Assembly: GCA_964654535.1 (NCBI GenBank)
Contig: CAZZIZ010000003.1
Coordinates: 1-55,909, forward strand
Length of the DNA: 55,909 nt
DNA from: an uncultured Chitinophagales bacterium
Lineage (GTDB): Bacteria; Bacteroidota; Bacteroidia; Chitinophagales; UBA2359
Direction of reading: 5' to 3'
The translations under genes and the position numbers were made by a program. Positions within the stretch are counted from its first letter, which is position 1. Each line of letters begins with the position of its first letter. Below, one piece after another: positions 9,035 to 55,909 of the stretch. Below the pieces are notes generated by a model. The model worked only from the letters and a program-made list of their open reading frames with translations. It did not search any database and had not been told where the DNA came from.

Positions 9035-9044
9035 AGAAATTGTT

Positions 9045-9806: not shown

Positions 9807-9808
9807 TT

Positions 9809-11176: not shown

Positions 11177-11272
11177 TTAGGGAACAATTTTTGATTAATC
11201 AACATTGAGTCGAATGTAAGGCAATTCAATGCTTAAATTTGCGTTACTATTACTGATTATCAACAAATTAAA

Positions 11273-11410: not shown

Positions 11411-11415
11411 GAAAC

Positions 11416-12149: not shown

Positions 12150-12181
12150 GGAGATTGTATTTTTTGTAAATTTAGTAGTCT

Positions 12182-13806: not shown

Positions 13807-13839
13807 TATTTCATTAGTCATTCATTTTTAAATTGGTTT

Positions 13840-14355: not shown

Positions 14356-14481
14356 AAAAGACTGATTATCAGTAAATTCTAGACAAATCTAAATTTCCAA
14401 TTGCATATTTTATTACACTTCTGAGACTGTAGATTATCTCAAATGATATTATCTTAGTTAAATCGAAAATTTAGACTTGAT

Positions 14482-17535: not shown

Positions 17536-17552
17536 AAGCGCGAAAAATATTT

Positions 17553-17585
17553 AAAAAAAAGGGAGGCTTCGCCTCCCTTTTTTTT
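17553..17585. terminator. Bidirectional rho-independent terminator between the convergent BNR gene and tdk
   Basis: An A8 run, the GGGAGGC-TTC-GCCTCCC hairpin, then a T8 run. Confidence 0.85.
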
Positions 17586-17649
17586 GCTCGGTACTTTCCT
17601 ACAAGTTCAATTCACGTTTTAAACTCTTGTGCGCTCGTCCACGCTTTTT

Positions 17650-18237: not shown

Positions 18238-18342
18238 CGCGGCAAGATAAGAAATTAGGTCATTGCATAGAATTAGAGCAAATTTTCAGTGGCAATCCTA
18301 GGGTAGATTTTTCTTCTTAGCAGAAAAGAATGTTATTTTTAA

Positions 18343-26510: not shown

Positions 26511-26588
26511 GTAGATATCTTTTCTGCCTAATAAACCCTTCAAAAGTAAGAAAGTCAAACCTTTGGTCTTTCAACTAAAAACCAAGGA

Positions 26589-27320
26589 ATGAAAAGAATA
26601 ATCATTTTATGTGCTTGTGTTGTCGCGTTTTCTGCATGCTCGGGATCAGGCAATATTTTACAAACCGTAAACGATGTACTCGCTGATGTAGAGGGTACAA
26701 CTGGCGGTGTTACTGACAGAGATGTCTCGAACGGGCTGAAAGAAGCTCTAGTAAGTGGGCTCATTAAAGGAGTAAACGTTGTTTCTAAAGAAAACGGCTA
26801 CTTCAAAAATCCTCAGATTAGAATTCCTTGGCCTGACAATGTGAAAAAGGTTGAGACTCGTCTACGAAGCATTGGGCTTGACAATCAAGTAGACAAGGTA
26901 GTGCTGACCCTTAATCGCGCTGCTGAAGAGGCGGCGTCTAAGGCCAAACCTATTTTCTTAGGCGCCATTAAGCAGCTGACATTTGCTGACGCTATGAATA
27001 TCCTAAAAGGAGAAAATGACGCAGCGACTCAATTCTTAAAGCGTGCCACTACGAGTCAATTGACCGCTGAGTTTACACCAGTAATTGATAATGCGCTGGA
27101 TTCTACACAAGGCACCAAGTACTGGGGAGAAATTATCAATACCTATAACAAAATTCCTCTAGTTGAAAAGGTTGACCCTGATTTAACTGGCTTCGTAACT
27201 GGAAAAGCTATGGACGGTCTTTTTACGATGGTAGCTAAAGAAGAGTTGAAAATTAGAAAAGATCCAGTGGCTAGAACTTCTGAGTTATTGAAGAAAGTTT
27301 TTGCTCTTCAGGATTTGTAG
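26589..27320 (+). CDS. DUF4197-like lipoprotein
   Basis: Lipobox (VVAFSACSGSG). The GLKEALVSGLIKGVNVVSKENGYFKNPQIRIPWP pattern resembles the DUF4197 family. Assigned from memory only. Confidence 0.55.
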   Translation: MKRIIILCACVVAFSACSGSGNILQTVNDVLADVEGTTGGVTDRDVSNGLKEALVSGLIKGVNVVSKENGYFKNPQIRIPWPDNVKKVETRLRSIGLDNQVDKVVLTLNRAAEEAASKAKPIFLGAIKQLTFADAMNILKGENDAATQFLKRATTSQLTAEFTPVIDNALDSTQGTKYWGEIINTYNKIPLVEKVDPDLTGFVTGKAMDGLFTMVAKEELKIRKDPVARTSELLKKVFALQDL

Positions 27321-27352
27321 TTTCAATTGATATTGGGCAAAGAATATTTGAA

Positions 27353-27380
27353 GCGACCTGAAATCAGGTCGCTTTTTTTT
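27353..27380 (+). terminator. Rho-independent terminator after the DUF4197 gene
   Basis: GCGACCTG-AAAT-CAGGTCGC hairpin followed by T8. Confidence 0.85.
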
Positions 27381-27703
27381 GTACAATATGTTTAGGTATT
27401 AAGAATTAATCTTCTGCAATGCCAAAACAAAGTGCCGGCTCGACATGTCAGGTCAAGATTTTAAGAGCTCAGTTGTCAAAACAAAATAAAATCAGGTTCA
27501 ACTCCCTTTGCGGACAAGTCTCGTCGCAATACGGGCTTAGGTGGTACTCTTTTTGCCGAGTAAGCATGTAATCGCCAAGTTACGTCTCTTTAATACATGG
27601 GTTTTCGGACTCATTTCGAATTAGAATATGCAAGCTGGATGCATTGAGCATCCACCCTGTCAATGGTATGTCCATTAGCAAAAAAGCTATTTAACTAATC
27701 GAA

Positions 27704-33700: not shown

Positions 33701-36358
33701 CCATCAACTGATTGTGATGTATTTACGCTTTCTGCAGTAGAAAATGCAGAGACTTGCTTTGACGCAGCAGATGGCTCGATAAATATAACCATCGATGGTG
33801 GTCTACCTCCTTTCAACTACGACTGGACTCCAACAACGGCAATGATAAGTGGGTCAAACCCTACTGGATTGGCTCCTGGAACTTACGATGTAGTAGTTAC
33901 AAGTTCAGATAACTGTACTCAAACAGCATCTTACGAAATTCTTGCTGCTGACGAATTCATAGCTGAAGCAATTGCTACGCAATTGAATTGCGATGGTACA
34001 GGACAAAATGGAATTACAGTCGCGGTAACAGGTGGAAATGGCCCTGGCTTTGTTTATAGCTGGACACCGAATGTGAGTTCAACTGATTCGGCATCTGATC
34101 TTGATCCTGGTACGTATACCATTGAAGTAACAGACGATTCGAACTGTGTTTCAACGACAACTGCAATAATCAATGATAGTGCAATCCCAACAGCGACTTT
34201 TACAGCTGCACCGCAGCTTTGCGACTCAGAAAACTTGGAACTAGATATAATGGCATTCGGTCAAGGTTCGATTGTTCTAGAATTTACAATAAATGGAGAT
34301 CCTTATACAGTTCCCAATTTGTCGAATGGTCTTGGCTTTACTCAGGCCTATCCATTGTCAACCTTGGATACCTCATCCGGTCAACTCGACATAGAAATGG
34401 TTTCTGTAACTGCAGATGGTTGCCTAAACGACATGGTAAACGAATCTCTTTCAGTTATAGTCGTTTCAGCTATAGAGCTCGAAGCGCTTCCCGTTGAAAC
34501 TTGTTCAACTGACAACATGACCTTTACCGTTGAGTTCGAAATAAGCGGTGGAGATGCTGCAACCTATTCGGTTGATCCAGCAGGTTCAGGTACGCTAAGT
34601 ACTTCCGCTCCATACATCTTTACTTCTAATCCAATTACAAGTGGCGATTCATACTCATTTAATGTTATGGATAACTCAGGATGTGCAGCAATTACTGTGG
34701 ACGGAAGTTTCGATTGTAATTGTGAAACGGTGGTTGGAACAATCGATCTAACGCCAATTGAAATTTGCGATGACCAACAAGCTATGGTAACGATTCTGAC
34801 AGATCCAGTTTCAGACGGCGATGATGCCCAAATTTTCGTACTGCACGATAACAGTGGTGCTTCCATCGGCGACGCAATTCAATTTAGCGCAGATGGCGTG
34901 TTCGCTTTTACTCCTCCAATGGTACACAACACGACCTACTACATCTCAATGGTGATTGGAAATGAAGACACAACTACAGGTGTTGATTTGGCTGATCCTT
35001 GCCTTGATGTAAGTCCAGGAGTACCGGTAACATTCTTTCCATTTCCAGTTGCCCAACCAGGACCAAACGATGCTACTTGTAGCAACGAATACCAGCTTCA
35101 GGCCTTACTTGATACAGGAGCTACTGGTACTTGGGAAATCATTGACGATGGCGGTATCAACTTAACGATCTCAGATCTCAATGATCCTTCTGCTCTTGCA
35201 ACAGTTGACAACTTTGGTACAGTAGAACTCGCTTGGACGAGCGCTATGGGTGATTGCTCAGATACTGCGAACATCATTATTGAGTTCTTAGAAGTCATTA
35301 CTACTACGGTTGAACCAACTGCAGTAGTTTGTAATACTACTGATGGAGGCTCAACGATCGAACTAAGTGATTTGGTTTTATCCGGTGTATCTACTGGAAC
35401 TTGGACTGACGTTGCTTCGAGTGGAGCAAGTGCAACTGGCACTACTTACGACTTTAATGGTTTAAGTGCCGGCACATACACTTTCAACTATCAAACACCA
35501 AATAGCGGCGGCTGTCCTTCAGAATCGTTCGACGTGGAAATTACAGTTAATGATTGTACATCGACATTAGTTTGTCCAACCGTACTGACAATTGCAGAAG
35601 GAACAGAGGCTATTTGTGAGGGAGATTCAGTTGACTTAAGTGTCTACGAGTCATCGATTACTATTGACGATCCTGATGGCACATTCGATGGAATAGAATG
35701 GTTTGCGGATGATGCACACACAACACTTATCTCTGCCACTTTTGCTCCTCAATATACAGGCTCTTGTGATCCTCAAATAATAACTGCATACCCAGGTGTC
35801 CTATGCGACCTATCAGGAACAGTATTATCGGGTGGTGCAATTGAAATAACTGTATATCCAATTGCAACTGGGGAATTAGAGCTCAGCACAAGCGGATGTC
35901 AATTGACTGCGCAACTAGATTGTCCAAACTTCTCATTCGAGGGCACAGGACTTTATCAAACCATACCAGAAGACTTCGAGGAAATAACGCTTGAAATTTT
36001 TAATGAAGATGCAGTAAGTGCAGGGCTTGAGCCTTGTGGCAATACAATATCAAACAGTTTCAACTGTGATGAACTAATCAAATTCATTACGCTTCCAAAC
36101 GCATTTTCTCCTGATGGCGACGGCATGAACGACTTCTTTCATCCACTATTGATGACTGGAGTAAGTGATGTTAGGCTTGCTGTTTTCAATCGTTGGGGAC
36201 AAAAAGTCTTCTCGACAGAAGACATGTTCCACCAGGGATGGGATGGGAAATTCAACGGTGTCGACCAGGAAATAGGTGTATACGCCTACATAATGTCCGC
36301 AACATTTTTTGATGGGAAACAAAAAGTGTTGAAGGGTAACGTCACCTTAATAAGATAA
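27704..36358 (+). CDS. Giant (2,884 aa) SprB-repeat cell-surface protein with a T9SS type B sorting domain
   Basis: Signal peptide (...[10 protein letters not shown]). 28 copies of the ~75-aa SprB-type repeat (C.G..DG.....V.GG..PY.Y.W......GL..G.Y.V.V.D.N.C). A ~630-aa non-repeat region follows, then the C-terminal [16 protein letters not shown]...GVYAY...G.VTLIR domain. Confidence 0.9.
29699..31624 (+). repeat. Higher-order repeat: 3 x 642 bp, each unit being three SprB domains
   Basis: GAAATTATGGCATCAGTAGTACCTACTGATGTTTCTTGTTTTGG at 29699 recurs at 30341 and 30983. Protein units are (…ENWNGADP…)(…EFSVT…[11 protein letters not shown]…)(…LTGSV…YGGD.NAL.AG.YTL…). Confidence 0.85.
32303..33703 (+). 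repeat. Higher-order repeat: 3 units of 465/468/468 bp, each unit being two SprB domains
   Basis: Unit starts at 32303 (DADCVPFT), 32768 (DLNCDPIT) and 33236 (DLDCDPIT). The second halves are almost identical in protein ([28 protein letters not shown]...[36 protein letters not shown]). Confidence 0.8.
36080..36355 (+). other. T9SS type B (gliding-motility-associated, CHU_C-like) C-terminal sorting domain
   Basis: [24 protein letters not shown]...[10 protein letters not shown]...GWDGKFNG...GVYAYIM...GNVTLIR. Confidence 0.85.
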
Positions 36359-36386
36359 AACAAAATTAATCGGAAAATTAATACAA

Positions 36387-39300
36387 ATGATCTCAGTAAC
36401 TTTTTTAAAGAGAGGACTCGGCCGCTGGCCCTTGTTTCTTCTTGTATTCCTTATTGTAGGATTGCAAGACTTAAACGCTCAGCAACCGTCAGAATGTTCG
36501 TGTGACGAATATTTGTACCTAAACGACTTCCAAACGGATGTGATCCATAAGTTTCGTGTAAACCAAGACGGCTCTACGACCGAGATTGGAAATCCATGGG
36601 CTACAGGAATAAATAACCCTCACGGGATTGGTTTAGACCCAAATGGCTTCTTGTATGTAGCTGAACTAGGTGGAGAGACCCATAGATTAAACTGTGATGG
36701 TCAAATTCTTGATTCTAGTGCTACTGATAATTCATCCGGCACGCTTAACCACGTAGTTATTGGAAACCACATCTTCTACAATAGAGCTGGCCAAATTTTG
36801 GCCTATAACCTTTGCTCAGGTAATTTTGTAGGACGACTTTGCTATAACAATAATGGCAGAGCAGCCTGGGGTTTTCAACTTGGTCCGGATGGCATGTTTT
36901 ACGTCACCGATAACTTCGAAGGTGGTATGGCTAATGGCGCTCCAAATGAGGGAAGTGTTTTCAGACTAAGTGCTGACTTAGCAGATTATACAGCCGGCAG
37001 TTGTTCCACAACTTATGCTCCTTTCATTGATGGATTAGGAGGCTTAAGAGGGGTTACAGTTGATAATCAAGGTAACGTTTATGTCGCTCAAAGGGATCCA
37101 GATAACGCTATACTCAAATTCAATAGTGCGGGACAACTTTTAGATACATTAGTAGATAACGCAAATGACCAAGTCGGTTTTAACAATCTCTTCGCACTTG
37201 TTTACGTCGAGTCTGTAGATTTAATTTATCTATCCAGTTGGTTCGACGACTGTATTGGCATAGTTGATCCAAACACATTGACTTACACGGGTGCTGCGGT
37301 TCCGTGGTTTCCCGGTACATCCGCAAAAGCAATGGGCGTAATTACTGAGTGCTGCCCTATTTCTATTCAACCTGATACGACTGTTGCTGTATGCGATAAT
37401 CCTGTTAGCAGATTGATTCTGCGAGAATATCTACCCTGTGACAATGTATGTGCAGGAGATTGGAATAGAACATCAGGTATTGGTGGATTTTTCGATTCTT
37501 GTACTTTAGAATTTATACCTGATGAAAATACGACTGATACGCAATTTTGTTTTTCGCGCCCTGACCACCCAAATAACTTTTGCGGTGGCATTGATTTTTG
37601 TATAAACTTCCAATTACAATGCTGCGAACTAGAAATTGATCAAGAAGCAGTTGACCAGACTGTTCAATGTGACGGGACTCTAGATGATTTCCAGGCCTGG
37701 TTGAACAATAATGGGAACGCTCAACTAGGCGGGAACGCTGCTGCCGACGTACATTGGACCAATAATTACAATGGTAACTTTAACTTTACCTGTGGAGGAG
37801 CTGGAAGCTTTACGGTAACTTTTACAGCCACAGCAAGCTGTGGATCTGAGGTATCTACTGAAGCGACATTTACAATTCTCGATACTAATCCACCAGTTAT
37901 TTCAACTCAAGCAAGCAATCAAGCTGTCAACTGTGATGGCTCTGGTAATACAGCTGCACTCAACGCTTGGTTAAACTCTAATGGAGGCGCATCTGCAACT
38001 GATTTATGCGGAGGAGTTACCTGGACAAACAACTTTAGCGGTAGTACAAACGACTGCGGAGCAACAGGAGTAGCTAATGTTACATTCTTTGCAACAGATA
38101 ACTGCGGAAACACGGCAACAACACACGGGCTATTTACGATAAGAGATAATGCACCGCCAGCTGTAACTTCTCAAGCACAAGACATTTCAGTTGAATGTGA
38201 CGGCAACGGGAATACAGCTGCACTCAACGCTTGGCTATCCTCAAATGGTGGTGCCAATGCTTCGGATGATTGCAGCAATGTAACTTGGACAAACAACTTT
38301 GATGCAAATAATTCATTTGCAATTTGTGATGGAACCGCTGGAACGGCAACAGTTACTTTTACTGGTTCCGACCAATGTGGGAATGCAGTAACTACTCAAG
38401 GTACATTTACAATAGTAGATGCGCTCAATCCAGTAATTACACAAGCACCATCTAATGCATCTGTTCAATGCGACGGTAACGGAAATCAAAATGACCTTGC
38501 CAATTGGCTTGCAAATAACGGAGGAAGCAGCGCTTCTGATCAATGTTCTGGAACGGATTTAATTTGGACAAACGACTATAATCCGAACAACTTCATTCAA
38601 GGCTGTGGAGCGTCAGGAGAGGTTCTAGTTATCTTTACTGCAACCGATGCTTGTGGAAACAACACGACCGCACAAGCTACATTTGAAATAATCGACAATA
38701 CTAATCCAACAATTTCAAGCCCAGCGGTTAGCGCGGTGGTTGAATGTGATGGAAACGGCAACACAACAGACTTAAACAATTGGCTAAACAACAACGGCGG
38801 CGCACAAAGTACCGATCAATGTTCTGGAAGTGAGATAACCTGGACAAACAACTATTCTCCAAATAATTTCAACACAGAATGTGGTGCTGCAGGAAGTGTA
38901 TTAGTAAGATTTACAGCTATAGACGATTGCGGAAATTCAGTATCTTCTACTGCGACATTTACAATAGAAGATACGACTGACCCTGCAATAGGATCAAATC
39001 CTCAGGACTTAGTTGTCGAATGCGACGGTTCTGGAAACACGAATCAGCTTAACAATTGGTTGAATAATAACGGTGGCGCGACCTCTAGTGATAGCTGTAG
39101 CCCGAACAACCAAATTGTTTGGTCAAATGACTATACTCCTGGCAGTTTTCCGTTTGATTGCGGTGCGTCTGGTGTACTTAACGTAACATTTACTGCTACC
39201 GACGATTGCGGAAACGCAACAAGTGCTCAAGCAACATTTACTATCGAAGACACAACTGACCCATTTATTGATGGAAACGGTGCTTTAGACATGACTGTAG

Positions 39301-42300
39301 AATGCGATGGCAACGGAAACCTAGGTGACCTTCAAGCTTGGTTAAACAATAATGGAGGAGCTGATTTCAGTGACGTTTGTAGCGGATCTAGTATTAGTTT
39401 TACGAACAATTACAATCCAAATGGGAATAACGGCGGCAACAACGGTGCTGTCTTTGTCGATTGTAACGGCCTTAGCGTTAATGACCCGAATGCAATTGGA
39501 ATTGGTGGCTCTGTTTTAGTAACCTTTACTGGTTCAGATGAATGTGGTAACTCATTTGACACGCAAGCAACATTTACTATAGAAGATACAATACCTCCGT
39601 CAATTGATACAGAGGCACAAGACCTAACAGTTGAATGTGACGGTGAAGGAAATCTTGATGATTTGGCTGCATTCCTTGCTTCAAATGGAGGTGCGTCAGC
39701 ATCAGACATTTGTTCAGGCTTAGATTCTGATGGCAATGGAAATATTACTTGGACCAACGACTTTAATCCAGGTGACCTTGTTTATGATTGCGGTTCAGCA
39801 GGTGATGTTCTTGTAACTTTCACAGCGACAGACAACTGTGGAAACGCTTCAAATACTCAAGCTACTTTTACAATAGAAGACGATACTCCTCCAACTATTG
39901 ATACACAAGCACAAGATGTAACAGTTGAATGTGATGGAAGTGGAAACACTTCTGACTTAGCAGACTTCCTTAATAGCAATGGTGGAGCAGATGCTTCTGA
40001 TACTTGTTCCGATACTTCATTAGCAGGAACAGGTAATACCGATATTGTCTGGACCAATGATTATAATCCTGCGAATTTTGTTAGAACCTGTGGTGCAGCA
40101 GGAAGCGTTCTTGTAACTTTTACAGCGACTGATGATTGTGGAAACACATCTGACTCACCAGCAACTTTCACAATTGTAGATACAATTGATCCAAGCATTG
40201 ATTCACAACCTCAAGACATTACAGTCGAATGCGATGGCTCTGGCAACACAACTGAACTCAACAACTGGTTGAATAACAATGGTGGAGCTACGGCAAGCGA
40301 CGTTTGTAGTATGAACAGCGATATAGTTTGGAGTCACGATTTCACTCCGGGAACCTTCCCATTTACTTGTGGAGCTTCTGGAAGTTTACTAGTTACTTTT
40401 ACCGCAACTGATGACTGTGGAAATGACACAAGTGCTCAGGCTACTTTTACTATTGAAGATACCACTGCGCCATTTATAGATGGAAACGGCGCATTAGATT
40501 TGACAGTTGAGTGCGACGGTAACGGAAACGTTGGTGAGCTTCAATCATTTTTAAACAGTAACGGAGGAGCCGATATTGATGATCTTTGTAGCGGTTCGAA
40601 TTTAGTATGGACCAATAACTACAACCCGAATGGTAACAATGGTGGAAACAACGGTGCTGTATTCTTTGATTGTAACGGACTAAGTGTAGACAACCCTAAT
40701 GCCATCGGTATAGGCGGATCGGTTCTCGTAACATTTACCGCTACTGATGATTGCGGAAACTCTTTCGACACTGAGGCGACCTTTACTATTGAAGACTCTA
40801 CTCCACCTTCTATCGACACAGACGCTCAGGACTTGACAGTTCAGTGTGACGGTGAAGGGAACCTTGATGACCTAGCAGCATTCCTTGCTTCAAATGGTGG
40901 TGCCTCGGCATCAGATATTTGTTCAGGTCTTGATAGCGACGGAAGTGGAAACGTAACTTGGAGTAACGATTTTAACCCTGGAGATCTAGTCTACGACTGT
41001 GGTTCAGCAGGAGAGGTTCTCGTAACTTTTACGGCAACTGACAACTGCGGAAATGCTTCCGATACACAAGCAACATTTACAATAGAAGACGATACTGCTC
41101 CAACTATTGATACGGAAGCACAAGATGTAACAGTAGAATGTGATGGAAACGGAAACCAATCAGATTTAGCTGACTTTTTAAACAATAACGGAGGAGCAAA
41201 TGCTTCTGACCTATGTTCAGACACTTCATTAGCTGGAACTGGCAACACCGATATTGTTTGGACAAATGATTACAACCCGAACAACTTCAATATTACCTGT
41301 GGTGCTGCAGGAAGTGTTCTTGTAACATTCACTGCTACAGACGATTGTGGCAACACATCAGACACTGAAGCTACTTTCACAATAAGAGATACAATTGACC
41401 CAGTAATTGATGGTGCAGGAGCATCTGACTTAACAGTTGAGTGTGACGGAAACGGAAATACTGGCGACCTTCAAAGCTTCTTAGACTCTAATGGCGGTGC
41501 TACTGCATCGGACGTATGTTCTGGTTCAGATATAGTTTGGACCAATAATTTAGAAGACGGAACAGGCGGATCTAACGGAGTTGGCGTTGTCTACTTCGAT
41601 TGCGATGGTTTAGAAATCAATGATCCTAATGAGCTTACAGCTGGAGGAGCTTTGACAGTAATTTTCACCGCAACGGATGACTGTGGCAACAGCACTAACA
41701 CTGAAGCTACATTTACAATTGAAGACACCACTCCTCCATCAATTGATGGGGAGGCACAAGACTTAACCGTCGAATGTGATGGTGAAGGCAACTTAAGTGA
41801 CCTGCAAGATTTCTTAAATAACAATGGCGGTGCTTCTGCATCTGACATTTGTTCTGGACTAGATTCTGGCGCTGACGCGGGAGTTGTTTGGACAAACGAC
41901 TTTAACCCTGGAGATTTAGTTTACGATTGCGGATTCGCCGGAGATGTTCTTGTGACCTTTACAGCAACAGACAACTGTGGTAACAGCTCAGATACAGAAG
42001 CGACCTTTACTATAGAAGATAGCAATGGACCTACTATTGACGCTGAAGCAACAGACGTGACTGTTGAATGCGATGGCAATGGAAATGCAGACGACTTAGC
42101 AAATTTCCTAAATAGCAATGGTGGAGCTTCAGCTTCCGATGAATGCTCTAACTCTGACGCAGGAGGCAATGGAACAGACGATATCGTTTGGACCAACGAC
42201 TATGTGCCAGGTGCACTAGTCTTTGATTGCGGTGCAGCAGGTTCAATCCTTGTCACCTTTACTGCAACGGACGAGTGTGGAAACTCTACAGATACTCAAG

Positions 42301-45300
42301 CGACATTTACAATTGAAGACACAATTGATCCGGTAATAGACGGAAATGGTGCACAAGACCTCACAGTAGAATGTGATGGTAACGGTAACCTTGGTGAACT
42401 TCAAACATACCTGGACAACAACGGTGGTGCAACTGCTAGTGATATTTGTTCAGGATCGAATGTTACTTGGACGCACGACTACAACCCCGGAGACTTGGTA
42501 TTTGATTGTGGGGCAGCAGGTGATGCTACCATTACTTTCACCGCAACTGATGATTGCGGAAATTCGTCTACAACTTCAGCAACTTTCACTATAGTAGATA
42601 CCTTATCTCCGGTAATTGACGGACCAGGAGCTCAAGATCTTTCAGTAGAATGCGACGGCAACGGAAACTTCAATGAATTGCAAAGTTGGTTAGGTAATAA
42701 CGGTGGAGCAATAGTGACAGACGAATGCAGTGCTGTTACGTGGAGCAATGATTTTACGGCTCTTTCGGACGACTGCGGAGCTTCAGGTTCAGTAACTGTT
42801 AACTTTACTGCACAAGATGATTGTGGCAACTCAGTAAGCACAAGCGCTACATTTACAATTCGCGATACCGTGTCACCAGTTATTCCTGGTGGTGGAGCTA
42901 CTGATCTAGTAGTTGAGTGCGATGGGGCTGGGAATCAGGCTCAGTTGAATGAGTGGTTGAACAACAATGGAGGCGCAACTGCTACCGACGTGTGTAGCAG
43001 TGTTGTATGGACTCACGATTTTGTAGCAAACAACATAGTTTTTGATTGCGGCGGTGCCGGTGATGCAACTGTTACATTTACTGCGACTGACGATTGTGGA
43101 AACAGTTCAACAACCGAAGCTTCATTTATAATTGAAGATACTAGCAGCCCTGAGTTTACATTAGAAGCTGCAGATTTAACTGTCGAATGTGATGGTTCTG
43201 GTAACGGAACTGATTTACAAAATTGGCTTGCCAGCAACGCAGGTGCACAGGTTATTGAAGATTGCGGAGACGTAGCTTGGACTAACAACTTCTCAGCCCT
43301 ATCGGATGATTGCGGCTCATCTGGAAGTGTTAGCGTTACATTCACTGCAACAGATGATTGCGGAAATGCCTCTACTACTTCAGGAGTATTTACTATTGTC
43401 GATACTACCCTGCCTACTATCACAGTATCTCCGACAGATTTAACTGTTGAATGTGATGGAGACGGCAATCTAACCGAACTGAACAACTGGTTAAACAATA
43501 ATGGAGGAGCTAGTGCTTCAGATATTTGCGGTCAGGTTGTTTGGTCAAATGACTTTACGCAAAATAGTATACAACTAGACTGTGGAAACTCAGGATCAGC
43601 AACAATAGTCTTTACGGCTACTGACGATTGCGGCAATTCAGTTACAGATTCTGCAACTTTTACCATCCAAGATTCTTCAAACCCAGTGATTAGTGCGAAT
43701 GCAAACAATGTAACCGTTGAATGCGACGGTGCAGGAAATGCAAGTGACCTACAAAATTGGTTAAACAACAACGGCGGTGCAAGTGCATCGGATGATTGTA
43801 GTGATGTTACTTGGACTAACGACTTTACGGCGCTCTCTGATGATTGCGGTGCAAGTGGTAGTATCCAAGTTACTTTTACAGCGAGTGATGATTGTGGTAA
43901 TTCAACTAGTACTACTGGAGTATTTACAATAGAAGATACTACTGAGCCTACAATTCAAGGGCCTGGTGCACAAGACCTTACTGTCGAATGTGATGGTAAT
44001 GGAAACACCGCTCAATTAAACGAATGGTTAAACAACAATGGTGGTGCTACCGCTACTGATATTTGTGGTGCCATTGTCTGGAGCAACGATTATCAGCCAG
44101 CGAATACAATAACTGATTGTGGAGAAGCTGGCGACGTAACTGTTGTCTTTACTGCTACTGATGATTGTGGAAACAGCTCTAATACTTCAGCTATCTTCTC
44201 AATTGTAGATACGAGTAGCCCAGAATTCACGACAGAGGCAAGTGACCTTACTGTTGAGTGCGATGGTTCTGGAAACTTTAGCGATTTGCAAACTTGGTTA
44301 AGCAACAATGGAGGTGCAACTGTTATCGAGGATTGCGGAAATGTAATCTGGTCTAACGATTTTAGTGCTCTCTCAGATGACTGTGGAGCTTCTGGAAGTG
44401 TTCAGGTAATATTTACAGCAACCGATGATTGCGGAAACAGCGATACAAGCACTGGAGTGTTTAGTATTACAGATACTACTGACCCAACTATTGATACTCA
44501 AGCTTCGGATATAACTTTCGAATGTGACGGTAACGGAAATCAGGATGAAATCAATGCTTGGTTAAACTCAAATGGCGGTGCAGCAGCTACAGATATATGT
44601 GGATCTATTTCTTGGTCAAATGATTTTGACTCAAACCTAATTGAACTTGATTGTGGCAATGCCGGAACAGCACAAGTAACATTTACAGCTACTGACGCTT
44701 GCGGAAATGCAAGTACTTCTCTTGCAACGCTTACAATCTCTGATACAAACGCTCCGCAAATTTCTGTTAATGCTTTAGACGCAACTGCAGAATGCGACGG
44801 TGCTGGAAACTTCACTGAACTTTCTGCTTGGTTAAACAATAATGGTGGCGCTTCTGCGTCAGACGATTGCGGCGATGTAGTTTGGTCTAATGACTTTAGC
44901 GCTCTTTCGGACGATTGCGGTGCTACAGGAAGTGTTCAAGTTACCTTTACAGCTACTGATGATTGTGGAAATGCTGCTAGTACTTCAGGCACATTCACAA
45001 TTCAAGATACTACTCCACCAACAGTTTCTCAGCAAGCTGCTCCTATTACACTTGAATGTGATGGCGCAGGTAATACTGCTGAAGTTCAAGCTTGGCTGAA
45101 CGATAATGGCGGAGCTGTTGTAACTGATATTTGTAGTACAGTAGTTTGGACAAATGATTTTGACGGAAACATCACTGTTGATTGCGGAGCTAGTGGATCA
45201 ACTACAGTAACCTTTACAGCTACTGATGCTTGCGGAAACGTAATTACCTCTATAGCTATTTTAACAATAGAGGATACAACTAGCCCAACTGTAACTATCG

Positions 45301-48300
45301 AAGCTGCTGATGCAACGGTAGAATGTGACGGTGCCGGAAACTTCAATGACCTTCAAGTGTGGCTAAACAACAACGGTGGTGCAGCTGTAGCTGACGACTG
45401 TAGCGACGTTGTTTGGACCAATGACTTTAGCGCATTAAGCGATGAATGTGGTGCGACGGGTAGCGTAAGTGTTTCATTTACTGCTACTGACGATTGTGGA
45501 AACACAACTTCCACAGATGCGACTTTCTCCATAACTGATACATCTGCTCCTTCGATTGACGTTCAAAGTTCTGACCTCACTATAGAATGTGACGGAAATG
45601 GAAATGAATCTGAAATTAACGCTTGGTTAAATTCTAATGGAGGTGCAGCTTCTACTGACATTTGTGGTGCTGTAGCTTGGACCAATGATTTCGACGCTAA
45701 CCTTATACAACTCGATTGCGGAAACGCTGGTTCTGCTCAGGTTACATTTACGGCTACAGATGCTTGTGGAAATGCTAGCACTTCGGTTTCAACTATTACA
45801 ATTGCTGACACAAGTGCTCCGCAAATAACAGTAACTGCACAAGATGCAACTGTTGAATGCGACGGTGCTGGAAACATAGATGATCTTGCCACTTGGCTAA
45901 ATAGCAACGGCGGTGCTGCAGCGGCAGATGATTGTAGCGACGTAGTTTGGTCGAATGACTTTAGCGCTTTATCTGATGATTGCGGTGCAACAGGAAGTGT
46001 TCAAGTAACTTTCACAGCTACCGATGATTGTGGAAATGCTGAAAGCACAACTGGTACATTCACAATTCAAGATACTACTCCACCATCTCTTACTGAGCAA
46101 GCTGCTCCGATTACACTTGAGTGTGACGGTGCGGGTAACACTGCTGAAGTTCAAGCTTGGCTAAACGATAATGGAGGTGCTGTTGTAACTGACCTTTGTA
46201 GCACAGTAATTTGGACGAACGACTTTGATGGAAACATCACTGCTGATTGTGGTAATAGTGGTTCTGCGACAGTTAACTTTACGGCAACTGACGCTTGTGG
46301 AAACGTAATTACTTCTACTACAACTCTTACAATTGAAGATACAACTAGTCCTACTGTAACTATCGAAGCTGCTGATGCAACTGTTGAATGTGACGGTGCT
46401 GGAAACTTTAACGACCTTCAAGCTTGGTTAAACAATAACGGTGGTGCAGCTGTAGCTGACGACTGTAGTAATGTTGTTTGGACCAACGACTTCAGTGCAC
46501 TAAGCGATGAGTGTGGTGCAACTGGTAGTGTAAGTGTTTCATTTACTGCAACTGACGATTGTGGAAACGCAACTTCAACGGATGCGATTTTCTCTATAAC
46601 CGATTCCTCTGCTCCATCTATTGATGTTCAAAGTTCTGATCTTACGTTAGAATGTGACGGTAACGGAAATGAAGCTGAGATCAATGCGTGGTTGAACTCG
46701 AATGGTGGAGCCGCTTCTACTGACCTTTGTGGTGCAGTAGCCTGGACTAATGATTTCGATGCCAACCTTATCCAAATTGATTGTGGCAATGCTGGTTCAG
46801 CTCAGGTTACATTTACGGCTACTGATGCTTGTGGAAATGCAAGCACTTCAGTTGCTACGGTAACTATCGCTGATACAAGCGCTCCACAAATAACTATAAG
46901 TGCTGAAAACACTACTGTTGAATGCGACGGTGCAGGAAACATAGACGACCTTACTATTTGGTTGAATAGCAATGGCGGCGCTGCGGCTGCAGATAACTGT
47001 AGCGACGTAGTATGGTCGAATGACTTTAGTGCTCTCTCTGATGATTGCGGCGCAACAGGAAGTGTACAAGTAACTTTCACAGCTACTGATGATTGTGGAA
47101 ATGCTGAAAGCACAACTGGTACTTTCACAATTCAGGATACTACTCCACCATCTCTTACTCAGCAAGCTGCTCCAATCACACTTGAATGTGACGGTGCAGG
47201 TAATACTGCTGAAGTTCAAGCTTGGCTTAACAATAATGGTGGAGCTGTTGTAACTGATCTATGTAGCACAGTAATTTGGACGAATGACTTTGATGGAAAC
47301 ATCACGGCTGATTGCGGTAATAGTGGATCAAGTACAGTTACCTTTACTGCTACTGACGCTTGTGGAAACGTAATTACTTCTTCTGCTGATTTAGTAATTG
47401 AAGACACAACTAGCCCAACTGTAACTATCGAAGCTGCTGATGCAATTGTTGAATGTGACGGTTCTGGAAATGCTGGCGACCTTCAAGCTTGGCTAAATAA
47501 CAACGGTGGTGCAGCTGTAGCTGACGATTGTAGCAATGTTGTTTGGACCAACGACTTCAGCGCATTAAGCGATGAGTGCGGTGCGACGGGTAGCGTAAGT
47601 GTTTCATTCACTGCCACTGATGACTGCGGAAATACAAGTTCAACGGATGCAACTTTCACTATAGCTGACACTTCTGCTCCATCAATAGATGTTCAAAGTT
47701 CAGATCTTACATTAGAATGTGACGGTAATGGAAATGAAGCCGAAATCAACGCGTGGTTAAACTCAAATGGCGGCGCAGCTTCTACTGATCTTTGTGGCGC
47801 TATCGCTTGGACTAATGATTACGATGCGAACCTTATCCAACTTGATTGTGGAAATGCAGGTTCTGCTCTAGTTACTTTTACTGCTACTGATGCGTGTGGG
47901 AACACAAACACTACAGAAGCAACACTAACAATTGCTGATACTACGGCTCCTCAATTTACTATCGCTGCATCAGATGCAGTTGTAGAATGCGACGGGGCAG
48001 GAAATGCTGGTGATCTGCAAAACTGGTTGAACAACAACGGTGGTGCAGCAGCGGCTGATAACTGTAGTGAAATAATTTGGTCGAATGACTTTAATGCTCT
48101 TTCAGATGACTGTGGAGCAGCTGGAAGTGTTCAAGTAACTTTTACAGCTACTGACGAATGCGGAAATGCAGAAAGCAGTACAGCAACGTTCACAATAGAG
48201 GATACTACTGCTCCGGTTATAGACCAAGAAGCTGACACATTAACAGTGGAATGCGATGGTGCTGGAAATGAAGCGGAAATACAAAGTTGGTTGAACAATA

Positions 48301-51300
48301 ATGGTAACGCTATAGTTTCAGACTTATGCGGTAGCGTTGTATGGACAAACGACTACAACGGGACGATAAACGCTGATTGTGGTCAAAGTGGAAGCATTAC
48401 TGTGAATTTCACAGCGACAGATGATTGTGGAAATCCAGTTTCAACTACTGGTACAATAATAATAGAAGATACGACGAGCCCAGTATTTACAATTGACGCC
48501 TCTGATGTAACCGTAGAATGTGATGGTTCTGGAAACAGTACTGATTTACAAGCTTGGTTAAACAATAACGGTGGCAGTTCGGTTGCAGACGATTGTGGCG
48601 ATGTGGTTTGGAGCAATGATTTCAATGCGCTTTCTGATGGTTGCGGAGCTTCTGGAAGTGTAGAAGTTACGTTTACAGCTACAGACGATTGCGGAAATTC
48701 TGCTTCAGATTCGGCTGTATTTACTATTGAAGACAATACAGCTCCTATAGTTACAACTGACGCCTCTGATATCATATTAGAATGTGGAGCAGATAATGAA
48801 ACTGCCATCAACAATTGGTTGAACAGTAATGGCGGCGCTGTTGCCAATGATGTTTGCGGTGCGATAGAATGGTCAAATGATTATGATGGATCTTTATCCA
48901 ACATTGTTTGTGGTCAATCTGGAAGCGCTACCGTCACCTTCACTGCAACTGATGCTTGTGGCAACCCTATTGAAACTACGGCAACCTTCACATTAGAAGA
49001 CAATACAGCTCCTACAATTTCAATTGTAGCTTCTGACTTAACTGTTGAATGTGATGGCAATGGCAATACTACTGAATTACAAAACTGGTTGGATAGCAAC
49101 GGTGGCTCGGCTGCCGCAGATAGCTGTGGAGATATAGTTTGGTCTAACGATTTCACTTCTTTAAGTGATGACTGCGGGGCCTCTGGAGAGGTTGAGGTGA
49201 CTTTCACTGCAACTGACGAATGTGGAAACTCCGATTCTTCAAGTGCGACTTTCACAGTTCAGGATAGCGCAATACCTGAAGTAACAAGCGACGCAACAGA
49301 CTTAACTGTTGAATGTAACGATGAAGCTGACGCAGCTATTCAAGTTTGGTTAGATAACAACGGAGGAGCAGTTGCTAGCGATATTTGCAGCAATGTTACT
49401 TGGACCAATGACTTTACCACCGTAAGTGGTGGTTGTGGTAACGCTGGGTCCGCAACTGTGAACTTCACTGCAGCAGATGCATGCGGAAACTTAGTTACAA
49501 CTACTGCAGTACTTACTATAGAAGACACAAGCCCACCATTATTAGTTACGCAAGCAAGTGATCTGGTATCAGAATGCTCTGGACCTCTTGATGAAACTGC
49601 TATTAATGCGTGGTTAGATGATAACGGAGGAGCTGACGCAACTGATGTATGTGGTGACGTTACTTGGTCAAATGACTTTACAGGATTAACCGCTGATTGT
49701 GGTGAAACTGCATTCGCTCTCGTTACTTTCACTGCTACCGATGACTGCGGAAATATTGCAACAACTTCTGCGAATTACATAATCGAAGACACGACTTTAC
49801 CAGACTTTGCAATTAATGCAAACGATATTACTGTTGAATGTGACGGTGCAGGTAACGTTACAGAGCTTCAAGATTGGTTAAACAGTAATGGCGGTTCTTC
49901 AGCTAGTGACCTTTGTAGTAACATTGTTTGGACAAACGACTTCAATGAATTAGACGGTGACTGTGGAGCTTCTGGAAGCGTTGAGGTAACCTTTACGGCT
50001 ACTGATGATTGTGGAAACAGCGCTGAATCAACAGCTACCTTTACAATTGTTGACTCTACTCCACCATCTCTAGACACTGAGGCTAGCGATACTACTGTTA
50101 TTTGTGATGGATCTGGAAATGAAACTGAGCTTAACAACTGGTTAGACAACCAAGGTGGAGCTCAGGTTACTGAACTATGTGGAGACATTACTTGGACTAA
50201 CGATTTTGACGGTTTGTCAATCGAATGTGGAAACACTGGAAGTGCAACAGTAACATTTACTGCAACTGACGAGTGTGGCAATGTTGCAAATACAACAGCT
50301 ACTTTCGGAGTTGAAGACACTTCTGACCCAGTATTCAGCATTGAAGCTGAGGATTTAATTGTAGAATGTGATGGATCTGGCAATGCCGATGACTTCGCAA
50401 CGTGGTTAAATGGTAACGGTGGCGCTGCTGCCGCAGATGACTGTGGTTCAATTGAATGGTCTAATGACTTTAACGGATTAAGTGATGAATGTGGAGAGAC
50501 TGGTTCTGCGACTGTAACTTTTACAGCGACAGACGAGTGTGGCAATAGCTCTAGCTCAACTGCAACGATCGAAATAATCGATACAACTCCTCCAGCAATT
50601 TCAGCCGAAGCAACGAGCCTATTAACTGAATGTGAAGCTGATGGAAACTCTGCTGAACTCGACGCTTGGTTAGACTCAAATGGTGGTGCTACCGCCACTG
50701 ATCTATGTGGATCAGTAACCTGGACACACGATTTCACTACATTAACTGATGGCTGTGGTGCTTCAGGAACAGCTACTGTAACATTTACAGCGACTGACGA
50801 TTGTGGTAACGAATCAAGTACAACTACTGAACTTTCTATTGTTGACAACACGCCTCCATTCTTTATTACTGACGCAGCTCCAATCTCATTGGATTGTACT
50901 GACTTGGAAAACTCAAGTCAATTACAAGCTTGGTTAGATAACAATGGTGGGGCCGTAGCAGAAGATAACTGTGGTACAGTTAGCTGGGCTAATGATTTCA
51001 TTGAAGCTAATGTAAGCTGTGATCCATCTCAAGCTGTAACGGTAACATTCGTTGCAACTGATGATTGTGGAAACTCAGCAATTACAAGTGCTGCTGTTTC
51101 TGTTCTTGATAACGATGCTCCAAGTATTACGCTTGAAGCTGTTGATCAAGTTGTTGAATGTGACGGAAATGGAAACATTAATGAATTACAAGCTTGGTTA
51201 GATAATAATGGTGGTGCAAGTGCTAATGATGCCTGCGGCACTGTCACTTGGTCAAACGACTATGACGGTCAAGTAGACACAAGTTGTGACGCATCGCATA

Positions 51301-54300
51301 CAATCAGCTTCACAGCAATGGATGATTGTGGAAACATCGCGACTACATCTGCTACATTTAGTGTAGCAGACACATCAGCTCCTGTTATAAGCAATACACC
51401 TGCAGACATTACGGTTGAATGTGATAATATCCCTGCCGCTAATGATCCAAATGCTCTTGACGTTTGTGGAAACGCAAATGTTACTTTAGATGAGAATAGC
51501 ACTCAAACATCAAATGGAACTTGTTCTGATAACTCATATGTAATAACTAGAACTTGGACAGCAACTGACGAATGTGGAAACACGTCAACTGCTTCTCAAA
51601 CCATTACTGTTGAAGATACAACAGCACCGATATTCGATGCTATTCCAGCAGACATTGCAGTATCAGCGGACAACGTTCCTGACTTTGCAGCTATACCTGC
51701 TTCGGACAACTGCGATAATGATGTTGAAGTTACTTTTGTAACTGAACAAGAGAATATTACTTGTGGATTTGTAACTACTATTACTTGGACTGCAATAGAC
51801 AACTGCGGAAACGCAAGTACAGCTACTCAAGTAGTAACTGTTACTGATGAAATTTCTGCTGAAACAACTGTAGTTGGAACAAACGATTGTTCTGGAACAG
51901 GTGTAGGAAGTGCTTCAGTTACTGTCAGTGGCGGTCAAGCTCCGTATACCTACTTATGGGATAATGGTGAGACTACAGCTACTGCAAGTCAACTTTCAGA
52001 TGGTCCTCATTCTGTAACTGTAACAGACGCTACTGGTTGTGATACCCAAGCAAGTGTAACCATTGAAGCAGCTCCTAGTCTGACAATAAACATTACTGGT
52101 GCCACACCTGTAAACTGTACCCTTAACTCAAATGGTAGCGCAACTGCTGCTCCAGTTGGAGGTGTAGGGCCTTACTCATACTTATGGGATAATGGTGAAA
52201 CTTCGCCAACAGCAATTGCATTATCTCCTGGTGTACATAACGTAACCATTACTGATGCAAACGGTTGTACCGCTGATGGTTCTGTAACTATAATAGTTCC
52301 AGATGCAATAACTGTAGAAGCAATTATGTTGACACCAAGCACTTGTAATAGTGCAACAGGTGCTGTACAAGCAATAGTAAGTGGTGGTAATCCACCTTAT
52401 AGCTACTTGTGGAGCACTGGTGGCACTTCGGATATCGAATCTGACTTAACTAATGGTGTATATACTGTAACAGTAATTGATGCAGCTGGATGTACCGGAG
52501 AAGCAACGGCAAACGTTGGTACTTCTGGAGGTGACATTGGTGTCAATGTAGCCTTGAGCAACGCAAGTTGTGACGGAGGTGGAGTTGTAACTGCAAGTGC
52601 CAACGTTGTTGGAGGCACAGGTCCTTACACTTACTTATGGTCTGATGGTTCAACCAACGCTAATAACAATGGATTGTCAATAGGCAATCACTCTGTGGTT
52701 GTTACTGACGTAAATGGCTGTACCAGTGAAGAATCATTCACTATAAGCGGTATGGAAGCCTTGTCAATCGCATTCACAACTTCGGCGGCCAGTTGTTCTG
52801 GATCTGCCAATGGTGAAGCAATAGTTTCAGTTTCAGGTGGTTCTGGTCCTTACTCATACGTTTGGTCGAATGGCCAAACTGGTCCTATCCTTACTGATGT
52901 TGATGGTGGAACTTTTACGGTGAATGTTACCGATAGTAATGGTTGTACTGGATCAGAGGAGGTAACAATCTCCGCAACTGGTACACTGGAAGCGTCTGTT
53001 TCAACTATTGATGTAACCTGCTGGTCTGGTTCTGATGGTGTTGGTACGATTACCGTAACAGGAGGAACTGCTCCTTACGAGTTCTTATGGCCGAACGAAT
53101 CAACTATCAACGAACTAGCTGGACTAGAAGCAGGAATCTATGATGTTTTAGTAACTGATAGCGAAGGCTGTTCTATGACTGTTCAAGTTGAAATTGTACA
53201 ACCGGATCAGTTAATTGGTCTTATTCCTGAAGTTACAAATGCGAGTTGTTCTGGTGATGCCGATGGTGCTGCAACCGTAACAGCTACAGGTGGTGTAACT
53301 CCTTATTCATTCTTATGGCCGAATGGTTCAACCGAAACAAGTCAATCAGGTTTGCCTGCTGGTGTAACCGTTGTACAGGTTTCTGATGCCAATGGTTGTA
53401 CTACTAACGCAACAGTATTCGTGGCTCAACCAAACAACTTATTTGGAGAAGTGTCCGTGGTTTCAAATGCCGATTGTGGTGTATTGAACGGAGCAGCTTC
53501 TATCGAAATAATTGGTGGAAACGAACCTTTCGAAGTACTCTGGTCTAATGGAAGCACATCTCTGGATGCAACAGGATTCTCTGCTGGATGGCATTCAGTT
53601 GAAGTTTCTGATGATGCCGGATGTACTTCGGTTTCGAACTTCCTGATACCAGGAAACAATGATATCGTAATCGAGGTACTTGCTACAACACCTCCGGGTT
53701 GTTCAGATGCAACTGGCGGTTCTGCATCTATCTCTATCAATGGTGGTTCAGCTCCTTACGATATACTTTGGTCAAACGGTGATACTTCTTTAACAAGTTC
53801 AAACTTGGGAACTGGAATACACACTGTTTTAGTAACAGATGCTCTAGATTGTCAGCAAGGGTTCTTAATCGAATTTGAAGAACTAGCTGAACTAGAACTT
53901 AGTTTATTAAACATTCAACCGGCGAGTTGTGCTGGAGCCAATGATGGTTCGGCAACAGTTACGGTACTCAACGGTAATGACAATTACAACTACCAATGGT
54001 CAAATGGTGACACTAGCGCAAGTTCAGAAGGACTAGCTGCTGGTAATTATACCGTTGAAGTAAGTGATAATACTGGATGCTCTGCATCTATTGATGTTAC
54101 AATTGAAGAATTGGGCTCACTCTTCATTGTTGAAGAAGGAACTCAGTCTACTTGTGATCAACAAGCATTTGGAAGTATTGATATCAACGTAGGTAATGGA
54201 TCAGCTCCGTTCACCTACAGCTGGAGTAACGGAGAAACTACTCAAGACATTAGTGGTCTCGTTTCAGGTGCTTATGAAGTAATGATATCTGATGCCAACG

Positions 54301-55909
54301 GATGTACAGCTTCTCAAGAGTTCATAATTTTCAATGAAAGTTGTGCTACTGACGTTGAACTAAGTATGTCAGTTGATATTACTGAGGTGGCCCCTGGAGA
54401 CATCGTTACTTATACTATTGAAGTATTTAACAACGGTGCTGGTGTTGCACTAGACTTAGAAGTTGAAGATATACTTCCAGCTGGATTAATATTCCAAGCT
54501 CAATCTGCTACCGAAGGTAGTTACGATAGCGCTACAGGAATTTGGACTATTGGTGATCTAGCGATTTCAGCTTCCGAAACCTTAACTATAACTGCTTTAG
54601 TACAATCTATTGATTCTCCTATTATCAACTTTGCTCAAGTATCGGCTCACAGTAATGCTGATGTTGATTCTGAGCCAGGTAATAATACCACGAGCGATGC
54701 AATGGAAGATGATGAAGCAGTAGCGGTAATCTTCCCTAATGGAGAAGTAGGTAGCCAGACTGGCGATTTTGACTTGGCTTTGAACCTGTCAGTCTTCAGT
54801 CAGTCTTCTACACCACTTATAGCTGGTTCAAGTACAGTAACCTTCGCAATAGAAGTATTTAACCAAGGTGGAGTGGATGCATTCGGTATAGAAATTACCG
54901 ATTACATACCAACATCTGGTCTAACACTTAACGATTCAAACTGGACTGTTGGTGCAAATGGTTTTGCTACCTACAACTTCCCAGTAAACGTTCCAGCTGG
55001 AGCTTCTCAACAAATACTAATTACTTTCGATGTTGATGCATCTGCAAGTGGTACTTTCGAAAACTTCGCAGAAATTTCTGCTGGCTCAGATATTACACAA
55101 ACGGCTATCGATATCGATTCTAATCCTGACAATGTCAACAATGATCTATTTGTAGATGATGTATTAACTGATGACGGCACAATCGATGAAGATGATCACG
55201 ATATAGCTTCTGTACAAGTTATTGCAAATGGTGCAGGTACTACCGATGGTTCTGACGACGATACTGGCGGAATGCTAGCATCCGGTACAGATACCGCTGG
55301 AGGTACAGCAACCGATGATGCTACTACTGGAATGGGCATCACCACTGACGGTGGTGATACCGGAGTAACTACCGATGGTGGTGATACTGGTACATTTACA
55401 GACGGCACTGACACAGGTGTTGCTACTGACGGTACTGACACTGGAGTTGCTACTGATGGCACTGACACTGGAACTACAGACGGTGGTGACACTGGAGAAA
55501 ATACAGACGGTGGCGCAACAGACGGAGTAAACACTACAACCGGTGGAAGCGGCACAACTGGTGGCGGCGGAAGCGGTGTATTCGTAGACAGCGATAACGA
55601 CGGTATTTCTGATGAAGATGAAGGAACGGGAGATAGTGATTTCGACGGTATCCCAGATTACCTTGATACTGATAGTGATGATGATGGTTTCTCTGATGCT
55701 CTAGAAGGTACGGGAGATGCAGATAATGACGGCGTTCCTGACTACTTAGATCCAGATCTTGACGACCAAGACGGTGACGGAATCCCTGATTCTGTTGAAG
55801 GTCCAGGTGATGAAGACAACGATGGTATCCCTAACGTCTTGGATACTGATTCAGACGGAGACGGAACACCTGATAGTGTTGAAGGTCTTGGAGATTCAGA
55901 CGGTGACGG
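36387..55909 (+). CDS. Giant multi-domain surface adhesin-like protein, 3' partial (at least 6,507 codons; runs off the window)
   Basis: First ATG after an in-frame TAA at 36351, followed by a signal peptide. I checked the frame by hand at 37611, 44862 and 55851, and it is open to the last base. The ORF is not in the supplied track, presumably because it has no stop in the window. Domain order is NHL-like propeller, ~50 four-Cys modules, 11 SprB repeats, DUF11-like x2, TSP3-like repeats. Confidence 0.9.
36489..37347 (+). other. NHL-repeat-like beta-propeller region of the giant protein
   Basis: Repeated blade motifs [43 protein letters not shown] and [16 protein letters not shown]. Confidence 0.6.
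37630..51835 (+). repeat. Tandem array of ~50 four-cysteine ~90-aa modules (HYR/Ig-like C-terminal half), plus 2 divergent terminal modules
   Basis: The anchor (E/Q/N)CDG(x)GN recurs 50 times at 260-340-nt spacing. Consensus: ECDGNGN...L..WL.NNGGA.A.D.C..V.W.ND......[14 protein letters not shown].....ATFTI.DT..P. Confidence 0.85.
44862..48056 (+). repeat. Higher-order repeat: 3 x 1,065 bp, each unit being four modules
   Basis: GA(C/T)GATTG...GTAGTTTGGTC.AATGACTTTAGCGCT recurs at 44862, 45927, 46992 and 48057. Units are about 85-90% identical by eye. A more diverged 1,071-bp unit precedes at 43791. Confidence 0.85.
51840..54345 (+). repeat. Array of 11 SprB-type repeats in the giant protein
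   Basis: Examples: [17 protein letters not shown]...[26 protein letters not shown]...ITDANGC. Eleven GGxxPYxYxW-type anchors were counted. Confidence 0.8.
54350..55200 (+). other. Two DUF11-like (conserved repeat domain) beta-sandwich domains
   Basis: [45 protein letters not shown]...[18 protein letters not shown], and DLALNLSV...[29 protein letters not shown]. Each is followed by a D.DS.P.N acidic stretch. Confidence 0.65.
55577..55909 (+). repeat. Thrombospondin type 3-like calcium-binding Asp-rich repeats; they continue beyond the window
   Basis: [86 protein letters not shown]. Confidence 0.7.

Follow-up and report, generated by a model that had tools for sequence, protein, structure and literature searches.

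SprB of Flavobacterium johnsoniae is a repetitive gliding adhesin of 669 kDa that carries a C-terminal domain (CTD) of type B and is anchored via SprF (PMC9143113). Type B cargo of the T9SS (type IX secretion system) is kept on the cell surface by PorP/SprF-like proteins (PMC9143113, PMC12618676), and a porP/sprF-like gene commonly lies directly downstream of the gene for type B cargo (PMC12618676); a porP-porE-like pair has been proposed to mark non-mobile cargo (PMC9143113). Each of the reviewed T9SS signals (types A, B and C) is a domain some 100 amino acids (aa) long (PMC10202324). Here, we analyse a giant open reading frame (ORF) on contig CAZZIZ010000003.1 (NCBI assembly GCA_964654535.1) of an uncultured Chitinophagales bacterium. 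The window under study is this whole contig of 55,909 bp, the greatest length listed for any contig with the window's proteins; the ORF covers positions 36387-55909 of its plus strand and is still open at the contig end, and it is therefore cut by the assembly and not by the choice of window. We think it likely that the ORF is the 5' 19.5 kb of one gene, whose product would be a filamentous adhesin, giant and very acidic, on the cell surface of a marine Bacteroidota.

The open frame encodes the first 6,507 residues of one intact giant gene. On the plus strand, the frame that opens at ATG 36387 runs through 6,507 complete codons (36387-55907) without a stop; at a GC content of 43%, one would expect stops at ~5.8% of codons, which puts the probability of a run this long at ~1e-169. 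The closest in-frame stop upstream is the TAA at 36351 and ATG 36387 is the earliest start codon after it. Gene callers placed the start at the same ATG in two Joint Genome Institute (JGI) contigs, as one gene running to the contig end. The upstream gene, which encodes a 2,884-aa protein, ends at 36358, 28 nt before the ATG, and the two genes together occupy 50.4% of the window. All of this agrees with an earlier sequence-only reading of the stretch, which had claimed a stop-free frame from 36387, the upstream TAA, a 28-nt gap between two surface-protein genes filling half of the window and a C-terminus outside the view: the contig ends at codon 6507 with the frame open. That reading had also found the ORF missing from the list of ORFs supplied to it, which is explained by the list omitting ORFs that run off the source sequence. 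GC content by codon position is 0.51/0.51/0.28, uniform along the ORF and equal to that of the neighbouring gene. The visible mature protein has a mass of 659 kDa, a pI of 4.05 and 247 Cys, and Lys and Arg are almost absent. Three minus-strand ORFs of at least 150 aa are listed inside the region; as the frame that contains them is under strong purifying selection, we do not accept them as real genes. We also rejected a pseudogene or a fusion of genes, given zero stops, synonymous single-nucleotide differences and a low ratio of nonsynonymous to synonymous substitution rates (dN/dS).

The visible part of the protein is organized as follows:

36387..36479, plus strand: Sec signal peptide (aa 1-31), read by eye, with a predicted signal peptidase I cut between LNA and QQ that would expose Gln
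36480..37631, plus strand: head domain (aa 32-415), an NHL/SBBP-like beta-propeller and then an ECCP Cys-rich subdomain
37632..51383, plus strand: 50 head-to-tail modules (aa 416-4999) of 87-112 aa each with four conserved Cys, delimited by their own hidden Markov model (HMM)
44757..47951, plus strand: super-repeat within the module array, three copies of a four-module, 1,065-nt unit (modules 26-37)
51384..51866, plus strand: two divergent HYR_4C domains (aa 5000-5160; PF23237, 57.2 bits against a cut-off of 27, two stretches)
51867..54341, plus strand: 11 SprB repeats (aa ~5161-5985, period ~75 aa)
54342..55256, plus strand: two DUF11 (B_ant_repeat) domains (aa ~5986-6290; PF01345, 107.6 bits, two stretches; TIGR01451, 63.1 bits)
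55257..55577, plus strand: low-complexity Thr/Gly/Asp linker (aa ~6291-6397)
55578..55909, plus strand: seven TSP3-like DxDxDGxx(D/N) calcium-binding motifs (aa ~6398-6507; motifs at aa 6401-6488)

Most of this layout had been anticipated from the letters alone: a signal peptide, an NHL-like propeller, ~50 tandem 90-aa modules, 11 SprB repeats, two DUF11-like domains and, after them, a Thr/Gly/Asp linker were all recovered, and the two HYR_4C domains were added behind the modules. Two of the earlier calls had to be amended. What had been named a Cys-rich linker is Cys-rich and is no linker, as it belongs to a conserved head unit of ~385 aa, alignable end to end across over 100 proteins; and the TSP3-like DxDxDG repeats are present as seven motifs but fall below the Pfam TSP_3 threshold.

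How does this protein compare with SprB? [quoted passage not shown] The differences lie in the makeup of the chain: the 11 SprB repeats form a minor block, the bulk is made of 50 HYR-like modules, and a propeller head, DUF11 domains and TSP3-like repeats are present (head and stalk were not compared with SprB itself). In addition, the CTD lies beyond the contig end and the window holds no sprF-like gene. These features bear on whether the protein could be a SprB equivalent, a mobile gliding adhesin carried along the gliding track, and not a static attachment adhesin. The 11 SprB repeats, a visible size of 659 kDa close to the 669 kDa of SprB (PMC9143113) and the adjoining SprB-repeat/CHU_C gene would fit such a role; however, only ~13% of the visible protein consists of SprB repeats, the window yielded no sprF-like gene (sprC and sprD were not searched), and mobility depends on the C-terminal region and a shuttle (PMC12618676), both outside the visible sequence. 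We regard a gliding role as unlikely.

Because the gene is so repetitive, its assembly deserves scrutiny, and the sequence-only reading had itself raised the concern of collapsed repeats. JGI contig LBH17_10000252 (L081, 18,966 bp) matches positions 25743-44708 of the window at 99.97% identity without gaps; of its six differences, the three that fall within the giant ORF are synonymous throughout. The other JGI contig, LBH21_10000078 (L136, 30,778 bp), has the same gene order as the window. Together, these two metagenome contigs, of which the first is the aligned one, reproduce the first ~2,775 codons (~8.3 kb) of the ORF. Both are short-read assemblies and stop at aa 2774 and 2777, just ahead of the super-repeat. 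The sample names LBH17, LBH21 and BBAY72 suggest macroalgal-surface metagenomes from the Sydney area.

The position of these two breakpoints, exactly at the beginning of the super-repeat, would fit an artefact in which repeats had been mis-joined or their copy number invented or collapsed; the true module count would then differ or the frame would join two genes. The NCBI contig itself also terminates inside repeats, and relatives of the module are for the most part pieces of 100-200 aa, many from contigs that measure 300-700 bp. The super-repeat copies themselves speak against such an artefact: they are only 82-86% identical in DNA and gapless, protein identity between modules of matching position is 85-94%, and exact DNA repeats within the ORF reach 40 nt at most. 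Synonymous divergence (dS) between copies is 0.59-0.88 with a dN/dS of 0.06-0.10 (Nei-Gojobori), the frame stays open across all junctions, and GC at third codon positions is even along the ORF. The divergence of the copies and the shortness of exact repeats make collapse unlikely: the copies of the super-repeat arose by old duplication and evolve under strong purifying selection; they are not a product of the assembly. The concern over collapsed repeats is therefore largely unfounded, and we consider an assembly artefact very improbable. Tandem Repeats Finder detected none of the long repeats in the window, as these have periods above 500 nt and are poorly conserved in DNA. At the shared JGI breakpoint (44700-44760), no exact repeat longer than 21 nt touches the spot; strain heterogeneity or a drop in coverage may have caused it.

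The N-terminus shows, by inspection, a Lys/Arg n-region and a hydrophobic core followed by the LNA-QQ junction. An A-Q junction followed by CxC is also found in homologues of the head domain, and the exposed Gln agrees with the Q-rule described for Bacteroidetes (PMC5837995). In the N-terminal 420 aa, both NHL (PF01436, 33.4 bits against a cut-off of 20) and SBBP (PF06739, 28.7 against 20.5) exceed their Pfam cut-offs, with only two repeats detected. A word-indexed search with the same 420 aa gave no match; an exhaustive search with HMMER recovered 1,270 cluster representatives (E<=1e-3), 104 of them with E<=1e-30, and the head is thus not an orphan. The relatives align over query residues ~4-380, a unit of 384 residues, at ~35% identity, and share an opening CxCx[DE]Y[LI]Y[LV]N[DE] and the closing ECCP Cys-rich part. 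Some homologues carry this unit in two or three copies. No Pfam or NCBIfam model covers the ~385-aa head unit.

The stalk is built of exactly 50 contiguous modules, as counted with an HMM built from the protein's own modules. Their consensus starts ..VECDGxGN... and ends ...T.ATFTI.DTT.P.; C13, C54 and C70 are invariant in the alignment of modules and C38 is nearly so. An AlphaFold2 model of the module, computed with the 50 paralogues as alignment, has a mean predicted confidence (pLDDT) of 88.5 and shows an immunoglobulin (Ig)-like sandwich with one helix. Its nearest solved folds, all weak, are adhesin and S-layer stalk domains (SlpX domain II, Big_3, Rib, SraP, PKD): Foldseek gave no match at E<=0.001, the best having E ~0.01-0.05 and TM 0.4-0.54, and a sequence-profile search of the PDB returned weak matches only. 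The likeness to these Gram-positive stalks (Rib, cadherin-like SraP, SlpX domain II, Big_3, PKD) is that they are the best structural neighbours of the module and consist of tandem Ig-like units that project a binding head off the cell; the module differs in its four conserved Cys and an inserted helix (WLNNNGGA).

To which sequence family do the modules belong? Scanned singly, 25 of the 50 match HYR_4C at E<0.1 (best 1.3e-4, none clearly significant) and 38 touch the OmpL47 barrel model, weakly; none passes any curated family threshold. The module HMM, in turn, matches both HYR_4C domains behind the array, at E=6e-9 and 1e-5. It also recognises a HYR_4C-rich protein in a Saprospiraceae metagenome-assembled genome (MAG), locus L032 (ORF 6215-19654, at least 4,480 aa, HYR_4C/DUF11/CHU_C), with 156.8 bits over 15 domains. 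Recognition of these true HYR_4C domains suggests that the 50 modules form a divergent sister subfamily of HYR_4C. Beyond the module family, the L032 protein shares DUF11 domains and the phylum with the giant protein, and it ends in a T9SS type B domain. It differs in carrying 14 DUF11 and 12 HYR_4C stretches, its DUF11 domains are only 33-41% identical to those of the giant protein, and a scan of the retrieved loci detected no head domain.

Behind the stalk, PF13573 scores 206.9 bits (cut-off 28) in 10 stretches, and a regular expression finds 11 motifs of the GGxxPYxYxW type, the number we adopt for the SprB repeats. They are 30-33% identical to the SprB array of the neighbouring gene. The Thr/Gly/Asp linker contains a tandem repeat at 55397-55472 with a period of 27 nt and 2.8 copies (Tandem Repeats Finder). 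For the last stretch, the Pfam TSP_3 score in the visible protein is 14.2 bits (E=0.035), below the cut-off of 25, so we call it TSP3-like by motif only; its homologues carry PF02412/PF18884 (TSP_3/TSP3_bac). An RTX/BapA-type adhesin of the type I secretion system was ruled out, since a Sec-type signal is present, no RTX/BapA family is above threshold and the context is that of a Bacteroidota T9SS.

How does the protein end? No CTD-like segment lies inside the visible part, and our searches for the continuation did not extend the gene: they gave at best 41% identity among genome contigs with the DUF11 region, 51-52% among metagenome contigs with the last 378 aa and, in a protein search with the same 378 aa, one near-identical fragment of 230 aa (P0001, 91%) on a 774-bp contig. 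The contigs that carry the neighbouring proteins are only the shorter JGI ones (18,966 and 30,778 bp), both ending at aa ~2,775. Relatives give indirect evidence. Among module-carrying loci, L032 ends in CHU_C, and L141, L143 and L144 have type A-like ends by a custom HMM, with L144 also having a precomputed Por_Secre_tail match. Bacteroidota relatives of the TSP3 run carry CHU_C ~100-170 aa later (P0040, P0072, P0100), or a type A tail (P0115). Relatives of the head differ from this picture: among the 150 best of the 1,270 head homologues (P0241-P0390), one has a type B and six a type A end, and ~94 (~63%) end in a short Cys-containing tail.

These tails read CPxPxC-x-x-[ITV]-x-[IV]-x-x-N or CGxFPWxGN at the C-terminus (examples are CPTPNCGTATIQVNGN, CCPSPNCFGITVTRN, CPPxxCLPVTITRSN and VDCGTFPWEGN). 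They are also found on multi-domain proteins of 2,000-3,900 aa (P0241, P0262, P0302, P0314), and no NCBIfam model matched them; they may represent an undescribed C-terminal sorting or anchoring motif. In Saprospiraceae MAG loci, short Cys tails also end ORFs L032:1984-6186, L035:522-4664 and L080:3241-9402, which lie directly upstream of giant CHU_C-type genes. The giant protein could itself carry such a tail in place of an 80-100-aa T9SS domain and be anchored or released by an undescribed mechanism. Besides the frequency of the tails, this idea draws on P0251, which ends DEDDYDPAHINICLAGCGTFPWSGN right after DUF11, and the giant ORF has a matching stretch after its second DUF11. The giant chain, however, runs on past that stretch, Cys-free, into the linker and the TSP3 repeats; among relatives, both those of the module array and those of the TSP3 run have CHU_C or Por_Secre_tail at their ends, and the adjoining 2,884-aa gene uses CHU_C. 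We therefore judge a short tail to be quite unlikely; if it were true, the protein would be the cargo of an undescribed Bacteroidota C-terminal sorting or anchoring signal, adjoining a classical T9SS cargo. Our expectation for the C-terminus is led by a type B domain, at somewhat less than even chances, closely followed by a type A domain; the short Cys tail ranks well below both and any other ending last. If the end is of type B, we predict a porP/sprF-like gene beyond the contig end, as such a gene is common downstream of type B cargo.

What would be the mechanism of display? We infer the export route, orientation on the cell, length, adhesive role and operon from the features above. The protein would be exported by Sec, its signal peptide being cut at LNA-QQ, and would pass the outer membrane via the T9SS, directed by a C-terminal domain beyond the contig end. 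Attachment would be by the C-terminus, to a PorP/SprF-like partner if this is of type B. The membrane-proximal base would consist of the TSP3-like run, putatively Ca-binding, the Thr/Gly/Asp linker as a flexible element, both DUF11 domains and the 11 SprB repeats. From it, 52 disulfide-containing Ig-like modules would build a stalk ~200 nm long, assuming ~4 nm per module. At the tip, the N-terminal NHL-like propeller and its Cys-rich subdomain would act as a ligand-binding head. Such an arrangement would have its parallel in SprB, which SprF holds as type B cargo (PMC9143113).

Several points weigh against the proposal of a T9SS-exported adhesin as formulated here: (i) the giant gene is known here from DNA sequence alone; (ii) its signal peptide was judged by eye only; (iii) a single-sequence AlphaFold2 model of the head has a pLDDT of 37, and the propeller rests on weak repeat matches; (iv) the 3' end with the defining T9SS signal was not recovered in genome, metagenome or protein collections, and short Cys tails prevail among the best head homologues; (v) no porP/sprF-like gene is among the window ORFs scanned; and (vi) no exact Bacteroidota -7 motif TAnnTTTG lies upstream of either the giant gene or its neighbour, so that the argument for their co-transcription reduces to the 28-nt gap and the absence of a terminator.

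The features that bear on the transcription unit are as follows:

27350..27375, plus strand: strong terminator-like hairpin after a DUF4197 gene, an 11-bp stem with 6 GC pairs and then TTTTTTT
27704..36358, plus strand: upstream partner gene of 2,884 aa, comprising a signal peptide, SprB repeats (at least 17) and, C-terminally, a CHU_C domain (type B T9SS)

The 2,884-aa protein scores 606.9 bits for SprB in 17 stretches and 57.8 bits for CHU_C at aa 2796-2880, in line with its earlier description as a SprB-repeat gene, and L081 encodes an identical copy. No terminator-like site lies between 36358 and 36387, and with the 28-nt gap this makes co-transcription of the giant gene with its SprB/CHU_C neighbour plausible and, in our reading, probable. 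The hairpin is the likely upstream limit of this two-gene unit. A sigma-70 promoter scan gave background level only. The 330 nt that separate the hairpin from the 2,884-aa gene contain a 48-aa ORF (27419-27563, plus strand), called by JGI on both contigs and without family match.

The remainder of the contig carries housekeeping genes, and no tRNA was found in the window. One ORF (14482-17535, plus strand) encodes 1,017 aa with weak matches to Sortilin-Vps10/BNR-like propellers and a Por_Secre_tail type A T9SS domain; by its domain content, its product is a second class of predicted T9SS cargo on the contig. Core T9SS genes are absent from the contig; what points, indirectly, to a T9SS in the host is that two other contig genes carry CHU_C and Por_Secre_tail, together with a Bacteroidales-type small signal recognition particle (SRP) RNA at 4154-4259 (minus strand; RF04183, 75.2 bits, full length). 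This RNA overlaps the listed start of ORF 2720-4189 (minus strand), whose true start must therefore be further in; an exact-sequence look-up of this ORF gave no match, which agrees with a misplaced start. The ORF encodes a Redoxin/AhpC protein and belongs to a thioredoxin-fold cluster (2720-8315) with a DsbH-like gene (5956-6582) and a thioredoxin gene (7863-8315), which may be relevant to exporting proteins with hundreds of Cys. Two further ORFs, 18343-20274 (plus strand, 643 aa) and 21518-22264 (minus strand, 248 aa), have no Pfam match at E<=1e-3 and are both kept on L136.

We found no orthologue of the whole architecture of the giant protein. Close counterparts come from long-read metagenome assemblies (L141, L143 and L144), with long runs of the four-Cys module (up to 1,130 bits) and Por_Secre_tail-like ends; they differ in a GC content of 55-57% against 43%, in genes broken by frameshifts, in having no detected head domain and in being of type A. 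On these contigs (L141-L144, European Nucleotide Archive long-read contigs of 0.3-1 Mb, two of whose records have 'pilon' in their names), frameshifts break the module genes up into numerous short gene calls. The 'proteins' of 90-190 aa that databases list for contigs near or above 1 Mb are in fact parts of such giant genes.

A giant gene of this kind is expected for the phylum, as the protein class is common in Bacteroidota. Some novelty lies in the head domain of ~385 aa and the helix-bearing four-Cys module subfamily, both without a curated family model and thus candidates for the domain databases, and, outside the window, in the short Cys tails of head relatives. Giant T9SS adhesins are strongly under-represented in databases because their repeats break assemblies, and the contig, which is among the longer unbroken views of a gene of this type, displays a clear division into head, stalk and base. 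Its stalk repeats prove to be old and strongly constrained by purifying selection, in a class of proteins that decides how marine Bacteroidota attach to surfaces and move over them.

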